64,000 nt of DNA from Escherichia coli (lineage in GTDB: Bacteria > Pseudomonadota > Gammaproteobacteria > Enterobacterales > Enterobacteriaceae): NCBI RefSeq assembly GCF_001677475.2, contig NZ_CP015229.1. One strand, 5' to 3'. How positions within the stretch are numbered: the stretch's first letter is position 1; the number at the start of each line of letters is the position of its first letter. The position numbers were made by a program, and so were the translations under genes. The notes beneath the pieces are model-generated. The model was not told the DNA's origin. It worked only from the letters and a program-made list of their open reading frames with translations, and searched no databases. Below, piece after piece: positions 54,159 through 56,663 of the stretch.

Positions 54159-56663
54159 TTATTCCTTCGGTTTAAACCGCAGCAATCGGTTAGCGTTACT
54201 CACCACCGTAATCGACGAGAGCGCCATTGCCGCTCCGGCGACCACCGGGTTAAGCAGTGTTCCGGTGAACGGCCACAAAATACCGGCGGCGACCGGAATA
54301 CCGATACTGTTGTAGATAAACGCGCCAAGCAGGTTTTGCTTCATATTGCGTAGCGTCGCGCGGGAGATGGCGAGTGCGTCTGCAACCCCCATCAGGCTAT
54401 GGCGCATCAGGGTAATCGCCGCGGTTTCAATGGCAACATCACTCCCGCCACCCATCGCAATGCCGACATCCGCCTGGGCCAGCGCTGGCGCGTCGTTAAT
54501 GCCGTCGCCCACCATTGCCACCTGACGTCCTTCACTTTGCAGACGTTTAATCGCTTCGGCTTTTCCATCCGGCAATACACCCGCAATCACTTCATCAATC
54601 CCTGCTTCTTTGGCGATCGCATTGGCGGTGGTTGGGTTATCGCCGGTTAACATTACCAGACGATATCCCGCTTTATGCAGACGTTGCAGCGCCGCCACGC
54701 TATCGCTACGCAATGGATCGCGTACCGCCAACAGAGCCACCGCTTTGCCATCAACGGCCAGTAACACCGGCGTTGCGCCTTGTGATGCCTGAGCTGAAAT
54801 ATCGGCTTCAATCGCTTTAGTATCGACTTGCTGATCATTTAACAGAGCCTGATTCCCCAGCAGCAGTGAATGGCCTTCCGCTTCGCCACTTACCCCCAGT
54901 CCGCGCAATGTACGGAAGCTATTGACCTGTGGCAGCGTGATATCGCCTGCTTTATCGAGGATTGCCCGCGCCAGCGGATGGCTGGAACCTTGCTCCAGCG
55001 CCGCCGCCAGACGCAATGCCTGCGCTTCATCAACATCAGCAAATGTTTTCACTGCGACAACCTGCGGCTTCCCTTCAGTCAGCGTCCCGGTTTTATCGAA
55101 CACCACGGTGTCGAGCGTACTGGCGCGTTGCAGCGCGTCGGCGTCCCGCACCAGCACGCCAAACTCAGCCGCCCGCCCGACGCCGGAAATAATCGACATC
55201 GGCGTCGCCAGCCCCAGCGCACACGGACAGGCGATAATCAGTACCGTGGTGGCAATCACCAGGGTATAGACAATCTGCGGTGCCGGACCAAAGAAATACC
55301 AGATTGCCGCACTGACAAGCGCAATAACCACTACTACCGGCACAAATACGGCTGAGATTTTATCCGCCAGCTGACCGATTTCTGGCTTGCTGCTCTGGGC
55401 CTGGCGCACCATGCGAATGATCCTTGATAGCGTGGTATGGCTGCCAACCGCACTGGCACGAAACAGCACACTGCCGTCCTGTACCACTGTCCCGGCATGG
55501 ACGCTATCGCCTTCGCCTTTTTGCTGCGGGATTGGTTCGCCCGTCAGCATCGCTTCATCCAGCCACGCTTCGCCCTGGGTAATCTCGCCATCTACCGGCA
55601 CGCGGTCGCCGGTCGTCAGGCGCAACAACATACCTGGCTGCACTTCTGCCAGAGGCACGTTTTTTTCACCTTCGTCGGTGACCAGGCGCGCCGTCGGCGG
55701 AGTTAAATCGAGTAATTTCTCCAGTGCCTTAGAAGAACGCTGACGCGCGCGCGCTTCCAGCATATGGCCGAGATTGATCAGACCGATAATCATCGCGCTG
55801 GCTTCGTAATAAAGATGTCGCGCTTCCATCGGGAACCACTGCGGCCACAGGTTGACGCTCATCGAATAGAGCCACGCCACGCCAGTACCCAGCGCCACCA
55901 GCGTATCCATCGTTGCCGCACCGTTTAGCAGGCTTTTCCATGCGCTGCGGTAAAAATGGCCGCCGGCAAAAACCATTACCGCCAGGGTTATCAGGCCGAT
56001 AACCAGCCACAGGCTGCGGTTGTTAGCGGTGACCATCATGTTATCGCCGATCATCCCCCAGACCATCACCGGGATACCCACCGCCAGTGCGACAATTGCC
56101 TGCCAGCGGAAGCGCTTCATCGTAGCGACTGCGGTTTCCTGCTGGCGCTCGCGGCGTTTAGCGTCATCTTCAATTGCTTCCGCGCCGTAGCCCGCTTTTT
56201 CCACCGCCTGCACTAAATCTTGTGGGGAGGCACTGCCCATCACCAGCGCAGTACGCTCCGCCAGGTTTACCCGTGCCTGAGTGACGCCCGGTACGCTTTG
56301 CAGCGCATTTTGTACGCGGGTGACACAGCTGGCGCAGCTCATGCCGCTCAGCAGCAACTGCTGGCTGTCATCGTCATCGGCGGTCGCTGCCGGAAGCGCC
56401 TCAGAAACCGCTGTCAGTGCTTCCGACGGGATTGATGACTCCGCCAGCGGTTTAGCCTTTGGGTGGCTTACAGATGCGTCATAACCCGCTTGTTTGATGG
56501 TTTCGATCAGCTGTTCTGCACTGGCAGTCCCGGTAACGTGCGCTTCAGTGATAGACACATCCGCTTGTTCCACATCCGGACGCTGTTCGAGACTTTCTTT
56601 CACGCGTTTAACGCAGTGACCGCAGGACAGGCCGTCCAGGGTCAGGTCGATAGTTTGTGACAT
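54159..56663 (-). CDS. copA: Cu(I)-exporting P1B-type ATPase CopA (834 aa)
   Basis: ORF 54159..56732 (TTG-extended into 5'UTR); start ATG 56663 ([20 protein letters not shown]); two HMA CxxC motifs, CPC, DKTGT; matches E. coli CopA. Confidence 0.97.
56457..56463 (-). other. copA: copA internal programmed -1 frameshift heptamer CCCAAAG (codons 68-69), predicted to yield 70-aa CopA(Z) copper chaperone
   Basis: minus-strand CAC CCA AAG GCT AAA: -1 shift after AAG reads GGC then TAA, giving a 70-aa product ending in Gly; consistent with the published CopA(Z) recoding site as I recall it. Confidence 0.75.

Follow-up and report, generated by a model that had tools for sequence, protein, structure and literature searches.

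To our knowledge, copA, dnaX and prfB are the only well-characterised chromosomal frameshift genes of Escherichia coli. The frameshift in copA and its product CopA(Z) were reportedly described by Meydan et al. in 2017 (Mol Cell 65:207), and Drees et al. in 2017 (Mol Microbiol 106:635) are said to have confirmed the frameshift, in a paper whose title names 'differential transcript formation'. The occurrence and efficiency of the frameshifting, and the copper protection conferred by its product, have been reported in the literature. Efficient -1 frameshifting in copA, leading to a 70-aa putative chaperone beside the 834-aa product, was described by Atkins et al. in 2016, who also noted how readily C_CCA_AAG shifts in E. 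coli (PMC5009743). Loughran et al. in 2022 regarded the E. coli copA finding as well backed by ribosome profiling and independently confirmed by Drees 2017, and refuted only the claim made for human ATP7B (PMC9548414). The slippery sequence, a pseudoknot and the nascent chain act as stimulators of the copA frameshift, and CopA(Z) is thought to pass Cu(I) to the pump (PMC7558416). In addition, single-molecule work that included variants of stem 1 and stem 2 showed stalling of ribosomes at the copA pseudoknot (PMC6182138), and a frameshift frequency of about 0.5 has been tabulated for copA (PMC9375231).

We analysed the copA gene present in a stretch of 64,000 nucleotides of E. coli DNA (contig NZ_CP015229.1), hereafter the window. 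The site found in this gene is almost certainly the known copA -1 programmed ribosomal frameshifting cassette, which would yield CopA(Z) in addition to the pump. The element is already published and curated, and is ordinary in this strain, since it is intact.

Identity of the copA locus and of the recoded product

The gene carrying the site is, as judged from its sequence, E. coli copA, encoding a P1B-1 Cu(I)-exporting ATPase. The NCBIfam equivalog model NF007952 (CopA) covered residues 1-834, the full length of the protein, with a score of 1745.8 bits against a cut-off of 1316. The coding sequence is contained in a long listed open reading frame, with the gene end at position 54159, and an AAGGAG motif was read just 5′ of the ATG. 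The flanking genes ybaP, glsA, ybaT and cueR correspond to the neighbourhood of the E. coli copA locus, and the 5′ region of the gene was matched in 5422 of 5426 complete E. coli genomes, being annotated as copA each time. The gene and its promoter are located as follows:

54159..56663, minus strand: copA zero-frame coding sequence, for an 834-aa Cu(I)-exporting P1B-type ATPase; ATG at 56663-56661
56702..56732, minus strand: copA promoter with putative CueR-type operator; -35 TTGACC, 19-nt spacer and -10 TAACCT, as read from the sequence

The 19-nt spacer of the promoter contains the dyad ACCTTCC-N7-GGAAGGT, and we take the promoter to be of the MerR/CueR type, supplying the copper-induced mRNA in which the frameshift would take place. 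Promoters of the MerR type have a 19-bp spacer. A generic promoter scan that covered spacers of 16-18 nt only found no promoter, a null result that is an artefact of the 19-nt spacer of the copA promoter.

Comparison with K-12 copA revealed 94.9% nucleotide identity (128 differences in 2505 nt across the whole gene) and 12 amino acid differences, all of them located beyond residue 213 and none inside the recoding cassette. Residues 1-69 of CopA are the same in both strains, and the window and K-12 show zero differences over copA nt 100-400, in agreement with the original prediction that the site is intact in this strain.

The following elements were identified in the 5′ part of the gene:

56457..56463, minus strand: slippery heptamer C_CCA_AAG, comprising the last base of His67 plus Pro68 and Lys69; copA nt 201-207, phase 2
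56452..56454, minus strand: UAA stop of the -1 frame, one sense codon (GGC) beyond the slip
56452..56663, minus strand: recoded CopA(Z) reading frame, with codons 1-69 in frame 0, the -1 shift at 56457, GGC and UAA; 70 aa

On the minus strand, copA codons 66-72 read AGC CAC CCA AAG GCT AAA CCG, preceded by GCA TCT GTA and followed by CTG. An X_XXY_YYZ heptamer is thus found in the zero-frame register just past the first metal-binding domain. The original prediction had placed CCCAAAG at 56457-56463, in codons 68-69 of copA read on the minus strand, which was confirmed by a direct count from the ATG. It had also stated that a -1 slip leads to GGC and then TAA, ending a product of 70 aa, and an explicit shift and translation gave this same result, with SHPKG as the predicted C-terminus.

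In the RefSeq annotation of K-12, the locus b0484 carries two CDS features, one for the full pump and a two-piece CDS of 212 nt from the copA start. The latter corresponds to YP_009518752.1, "soluble Cu(+) chaperone", and its equivalent span here is 56663..56452. An exact-sequence look-up revealed that the 70-aa product of the window equals YP_009518752.1 and the UniProt entry 'Isoform Soluble copper chaperone CopA(Z)'. This product matches Pfam PF00403 (HMA) over residues 8-62 with 51.7 bits against a cut-off of 24.8, and contains the CxxC motif CGHC at residues 14-17. The claim that it equals the first metal-binding domain is upheld by its single HMA domain and by the exact match to the curated entries. 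Likewise, the match to the reported copA frameshift giving a soluble copper chaperone, as stated in the original prediction, proved right in site, frame, length and function when compared with the joined CDS of K-12 and with the literature. The product fits the class of HMA or CopZ-type metallochaperones of about 70 aa and is a predicted copper binder; the NCBIfam CopZ models scored under their cut-offs on the first domain of CopA. In the closest genome, PGAP annotates the 834-aa CDS only. Standard pipelines call only this CDS, so that the 70-aa CopA(Z) should be added as a joined CDS.

Selection on the slippery heptamer and the -1 frame

The heptamer alone is not a distinctive feature of this DNA. 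Four copies of CCCAAAG occur in the window on both strands, compared with 8.4 ± 3.0 in dinucleotide-preserving shuffles. Two of the three other copies are out of register in open frames and one is antisense to ybaP; among the four, only the copA copy joins the X_XXY_YYZ register, a real gene and an immediate -1 stop. The bare heptamer being no more frequent than expected by chance, it is this combination that is specific, and not the heptamer. As the motif alone is uninformative, this count speaks for an alternative explanation, in which the heptamer would be a chance occurrence within a conserved His-Pro-Lys peptide, with no programmed slippage. The comparison of orthologues speaks against this alternative.

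Orthologous sequences were obtained through a DNA-pattern scan of metagenomes anchored on the motif GHCVKRVKE, which precedes the frameshift site by about 150 nt and kept the sampling blind to it. The resulting set contained 100 unique intact sequences, consisting of the scan results together with the window, Citrobacter and Enterobacter, and spanned genes of the Enterobacteriaceae type and of the Pantoea/Erwinia type. A protein homology search returned N-terminal fragments only, which showed a conserved P-K-x-[KNDE] pattern.

The heptamer was CCCAAAG in 98 of the 100 orthologues and CCCAAAA in the other two, with CCA as the Pro codon in all of them and AAG as the Lys codon in 98. The codon before Pro was CAC, TCC, AGC, CGC, TTC, CTC or TAC, thus encoding six different amino acids (H/S/R/F/L/Y), and ended in C in 100 of 100 sequences. 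The first codon after the heptamer (GCT, TCT, CCT, ACT or CTT) ended in T in every sequence, the second one was AAA, AAC, GAG, GAT, GAA or GAC, and the codon thereafter was always CCG. The succession of an NNT codon and an AAN or GAN codon closes the -1 frame with UAA or UGA, and the position of this stop is shared by all 100 orthologues. Such a codon pattern bears the mark of selection for decoding in the -1 frame, as opposed to selection for the zero-frame peptide.

Pairwise synonymous differences were then determined among the 67 sequences that share the register of E. coli. The synonymous difference was 0.433 in codons 24-66, 0.006 in codons 67-72, 0.085 in codons 72-86, 0.000 in codons 90-92 and 0.71 at codon 93. 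Synonymous variation at the slip site was thus about 70-fold below that of flanking codons in the same sequences, revealing purifying selection on synonymous sites over the frameshift signal. The suppressed variation outlines the following element:

56388..56468, minus strand: recoding cassette, copA codons 66-92, 81 nt

A 91-nt query (56380-56470) that includes this cassette was matched without any difference in 5336 of the 5422 E. coli genomes, whereas a 461-nt region around it retrieved only 1858 E. coli genomes at 99% identity.

A peptide conserved by itself would account poorly for these observations: the residue before Pro varies while its codon always ends in C, the CCA and AAG codons are kept in 100 and 98 sequences, the next codon always ends in T, the -1 stop is always present, and synonymous changes are depleted in comparison with the flanking codons of the same genes. 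Published experiments are also at odds with a chance heptamer (PMC9548414, PMC5009743, PMC7558416). We consider this explanation effectively refuted, with hardly any probability left to it, and retain programmed frameshifting as the reading of the site.

The downstream pseudoknot and the decoding mechanism

The base pairs of the structure downstream of the heptamer were derived independently here from comparative pair counts, with column 1 assigned to the first C of the heptamer (56463). Two helices were obtained:

56441..56450, minus strand: stem 1 5′ arm, CCGCUGgCGG, 6 nt past the heptamer; RNAalifold and pair counts
56408..56417, minus strand: stem 1 3′ arm, CUGaCAGCGG; RNAalifold and pair counts
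56419..56427, minus strand: stem 2 5′ arm, GUCGGAAGC, within the loop of stem 1; pair counts
56389..56397, minus strand: stem 2 3′ arm, GCUUCCGGC, downstream of stem 1, including a rare Leu codon, CUU, that does not vary

Stem 1 pairs columns 14-19 with 51-56 (CCGCUG/CAGCGG) and was found unprompted by RNAalifold, which added columns 21-23 with 47-49; stem 2 pairs columns 37-45 with 67-75 (GUCGGAAGC/GCUUCCGGC). The arrangement has the topology of an H-type pseudoknot, with a 6-nt spacer, a loop 1 of 13-17 nt, a loop 2 of 1 nt (56418) and a loop 3 of 10 nt. The energies of the isolated hairpins were -11.1 kcal/mol for stem 1 and -14.2 kcal/mol for stem 2.

Among 65 distinct sequences, 96.5% of the cells held standard pairs, in comparison with 21-53% when the 3′ partners were slid by 1-3 columns, and the values for stem 1 reached 99-100%. 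At pair 17:53, C-G was found in 48 of these sequences, U-A in 16 and U-G in one. Over all pair counts made, the paired cells amounted to 96.4-96.5% and those of the slid controls to 18-53%. Once Proteus, Photorhabdus and locus L204 were added, double-sided changes were observed in 6 of 18 pairs, a number reached in none of 500 shuffles (slid controls, 0-4), and stem 2 showed compensatory changes in 4 of its 9 pairs; most helix positions are invariant, so that this covariation stems from a small number of events at the level of lineages (Pantoea type, Proteus, Photorhabdus, L204). The outer three pairs of stem 2 are broken in sequences of the Pantoea type. The synonymous sites that still vary correspond to column 22 (A-U/G-U), column 25 in loop 1, column 46, which is the unpaired base of loop 2, and, for the rest, loop 3. 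These data show purifying selection on the heptamer, the -1 stop and both stems, along with compensatory pair changes, and they provide an independent, experiment-free confirmation of the frameshift signal and its pseudoknot.

The original prediction had proposed RNA folding as a means to detect a pseudoknot-forming sequence downstream of the heptamer, and this was borne out by comparative pairing, which recovered both stems, but not by single-sequence folding. The minimum free energy (MFE) structure of the downstream 87 nt gave z = -0.86 against shuffles, a non-significant value, with stem 2 formed and stem 1 not. Since the program cannot represent pseudoknots, this fold was set aside as a test and comparative pair counts were used instead.

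The possibility has to be considered that the stimulator consists of a single hairpin, or of two mutually exclusive hairpins, rather than of a pseudoknot in which both stems form simultaneously. Stem 2 but not stem 1 is formed in the nested MFE structure, and stem 1 but not stem 2 in the RNAalifold consensus, a loop 1 of 13-17 nt is long for a classical H-type pseudoknot, and comparative counts back each helix separately, simultaneous and alternating formation being indistinguishable by such counts. On the other hand, both helices are conserved, each of them with compensatory changes, and the 1-nt junction between the 5′ arm of stem 2 and the 3′ arm of stem 1 is kept in Proteus, Photorhabdus and L204, in which the 12-nt distance from stem 1 to UUCCGG is also fixed. 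The kept junction and the fixed distance fit a coaxial H-type geometry. Furthermore, the literature names a pseudoknot, for which stem 1 and stem 2 variants were tested (PMC6182138, PMC7558416). Taking both sides into account, the hairpin explanation appears very unlikely. A pseudoknot is the preferred structure, in which both stems would coexist, and its distance of 6 nt from the heptamer lies within the 5-9 nt spacing of stimulatory pseudoknots.

The synonymous sites of loop 1 (codons 76-79) are also conserved without being required by the pairing model, which may point to an additional contact, either tertiary or with the ribosome. This conservation would also be compatible with a different origin of the constraint, according to which codons 66-92 would be conserved mainly for another overlapping function, such as producing or processing a short 5′ copA transcript, with the frameshift being secondary. 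The title of Drees et al. 2017 points to a second route of this kind, at the level of the transcript. Against this explanation, the copA strand showed no terminator-like site from 56300 to 56460, and the Rfam 15 covariance models gave no match at E ≤ 1 on either strand of 56200-56800, the element appearing to be absent from Rfam. Moreover, the constraints observed are specific for decoding: the -1 codon has C as its wobble base, the slip register is kept exactly, and the -1 frame is closed one codon later. We regard a mainly transcript-related constraint as unlikely; the transcript route and the frameshift route are not mutually exclusive.

Under the programmed frameshifting favoured here, a ribosome positioned at C_CCA_AAG would have its P site occupied by tRNA-Pro (codon CCA) and its A site by tRNA-Lys (codon AAG), while the H-type pseudoknot, whose start 6 nt past the heptamer places it at the entry channel for mRNA, would oppose unwinding. 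Both tRNAs would then re-pair one base back, on CCC and AAA, a slippage to which the nascent chain reportedly adds. After the slip, the ribosome would read GGC (Gly70) and UAA, releasing CopA(Z) as a 70-aa soluble HMA-domain chaperone, whereas ribosomes that do not slip would produce the 834-aa Cu(I) pump. A single copper-induced, CueR-dependent mRNA would thus give rise to pump and chaperone in a fixed ratio, both being induced together. From the identity with K-12 over copA nt 100-400, we infer that this strain behaves like K-12 and that the signal is probably functional in it.

Transcriptional slippage was also considered as a source of the shifted product. It was rejected in view of the length of the A-run, of only 3 nt, and because what is conserved is register-specific (a wobble C in the -1 codon, and the -1 stop), in keeping with slippage of the ribosome.

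Distribution of the cassette and comparison with known systems

As an outgroup control, 80 CopA loci across bacteria and archaea were collected with a full-length CopA scan, whose matches were dominated by the P-type ATPase motif MVGDGIND. Only three of these 80 loci, all of them from Enterobacterales, had CCCAAAR in phase and a -1 stop no more than two codons further on, and the frameshift cassette was found in none of the 77 non-enterobacterial CopA loci. Within this sample of CopA genes, the element is thus restricted to Enterobacterales.

In three enterobacterial orthologues whose N-terminus bears additional metal-binding domains, the cassette lies further along the gene, behind the last of these domains. 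It is located at nt 411 in Photorhabdus, with a predicted product of 140 aa containing two CxxC domains, at nt 408 in L204, with a predicted product of 139 aa and two domains, and at nt 609 in Proteus vulgaris, with a predicted product of 206 aa and three domains.

These three loci share C_CCA_AAA, a 6-nt spacer with a -1 UGA and then CCGCUG...CAGCGG, and the spacing between the 5′ and 3′ arms of stem 2 is unchanged in them. The sequence of stem 2 is CUGGAA/UUCCAG in Proteus versus UCGGAA/UUCCGG in E. coli. As a unit, the cassette would comprise C_CCA_AAA, a -1 UGA inside the 6-nt spacer, CCGCUG/CAGCGG as stem 1 and C(C/U)GGAA/UUCC(G/A)G as stem 2. It is conceivable, although we would stop just short of favouring it, that the cassette is not a feature of codon 68 but a unit that moves with the inter-domain linker across Enterobacterales and is placed after the last extra metal-binding domain, in which case soluble chaperones of 140, 139 and 206 aa would be expected. 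The relocated cassettes of Photorhabdus, Proteus and L204 may be new. Together with the constraint on loop 1 and the lack of an Rfam model, they make up the residual novelty of this analysis.

The closest known system is K-12 copA/CopA(Z) itself, which has the same gene, heptamer, register, -1 stop and 70-aa product, and whose cassette shows no differences from the one described here. More broadly, copA exemplifies how one mRNA can give a membrane pump and a soluble metallochaperone at a fixed ratio.

The copA signal also resembles that of dnaX (tau/gamma), another chromosomal, non-mobile gene with an X_XXA_AAG heptamer decoded by tRNA-Lys, in which near-immediate termination in the -1 frame gives a shorter functional protein with an efficiency of about 50%. 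The two genes differ in their stimulators: dnaX is generally known to use A_AAA_AAG flanked by a Shine-Dalgarno-like stimulator upstream and a stem-loop downstream, whereas copA has C_CCA_AAG and a downstream pseudoknot. An internal Shine-Dalgarno of the dnaX type was searched for in the 20 nt upstream of the copA heptamer (GGTTATGACGCATCTGTAAGCCA), which contain neither GGAG nor AGGA. A contribution of the nascent chain, reported for copA (PMC7558416), also sets it apart from dnaX. The copA signal is thus like dnaX in outcome and not in stimulators.

With regard to its product, CopA(Z) is similar to chaperones of the CopZ/Atx1 type, such as those encoded by copZ of Enterococcus hirae and Bacillus subtilis, with which it shares its solubility, its HMA domain, its length of about 70 aa and a CxxC motif. 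Unlike the products of stand-alone copZ genes, it would arise through recoding of the first domain of the pump itself. Finally, like viral and insertion sequence signals (for example IBV 1a/1b and orfAB of the IS3 family), the copA signal combines a slippery heptamer with an H-type pseudoknot some 6 nt away; it differs from them by an unusually long loop 1 (13-17 nt). In addition, the IBV and IS3 signals extend translation into a long -1 ORF to give a fusion protein, whereas the copA shift truncates the product after one codon.

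Loop 1 and the slippery site

Analysis of synonymous variation in the Enterobacteriaceae-type copA genes drew attention to loop 1 of the frameshift pseudoknot, which occupies the following position:

Window 56428-56440, minus strand: pseudoknot loop 1, GAG UCA UCA AUC CCG, copA codons 75-79

The synonymous sites of this loop were nearly invariant in codons 76-79 (difference of 0.00-0.04), and the loop takes no part in the pairing model. Possible causes of the constraint are tertiary or triplex contacts, a contact with the ribosome, or an alternative structure.

Among the metagenome contigs, the slip-site region of the Klebsiella-like contig L173 reads CCCAAAGGCCTAAACC. 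The presence of an extra C in this copy brings a UAA codon into the zero frame (...SHPKA*), so that, unless the additional base is an assembly error, the gene would encode only a predicted chaperone-sized product of approximately 70 aa and no pump. In six further contigs (L109, L130, L144, L153, L166, and L194), the slip-site region of copA was broken or unusable.

The frameshift cassette in multi-domain orthologues

In the orthologues of Photorhabdus, Proteus vulgaris, and an enterobacterial relative (L204), all of which have additional metal-binding domains at the N-terminus, the same cassette was found after the second or third of these domains, at the following positions:

L005:1911-1997: relocated cassette of Photorhabdus, predicted chaperone of 140 aa with 2 domains
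L203:2109-2192: relocated cassette of Proteus vulgaris, predicted chaperone of 206 aa with 3 domains
L204:1908-1994: relocated cassette of the L204 relative, predicted chaperone of 139 aa with 2 domains

The three relocated cassettes contain the heptamer C_CCA_AAA, a 6-nt spacer with a UGA codon in the -1 frame, and both pseudoknot stems; stem 2 of the Proteus cassette carries a compensatory change from C:G to U:A.

Promoter, coding-region, and junction features of copA

Upstream of the gene, the following promoter was identified:

Window 56702-56732, minus strand: copA promoter, -35 TTGACC and -10 TAACCT separated by a 19-nt spacer

The spacer holds a perfect dyad (ACCTTCC-N7-GGAAGGT), an arrangement that we take to be a MerR/CueR-type architecture. 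This promoter was not found in a generic promoter scan because the scan permits only spacers of 16-18 nt.

Comparison with K-12 copA placed 63 of the 128 nucleotide differences within a 400-nt segment (copA nt 1701-2100, window 54564-54963), at 22, 19, 11, and 11 differences per successive 100 nt. Of the 12 amino-acid changes, 8 also fall in this segment (residues 575-623). Its appearance is that of a patch of the nucleotide-binding domain that has recombined or diverged.

In K-12 and the closest genomes, ybaP and copA are separated by an intergenic gap of 794 bp, with the HigA-family antitoxin-like gene ybaQ in between. In the window, the corresponding gap (53914-54158) is only 245 bp long and contains a REP-like repeat, for which each E. 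coli genome has approximately 37 matching places. The highest-ranking E. coli matches align only as three pieces over 949 bp with ybaQ between them, a pattern which indicates that few complete E. coli genomes are likely to share the ybaQ-less junction.

Annotation of the recoded product

No Rfam release 15 family matched the copA frameshift pseudoknot (search of window 56200-56800, E ≤ 1), and alignment A2 from the present analysis could seed such a family. In the closest complete genome (NZ_CP025892.1, copA at locus positions 3099-5603), PGAP annotates the full-length CDS only, whereas the K-12 reference includes a joined CDS for CopA(Z). Most E. coli genomes therefore probably lack an annotation of the recoded product.
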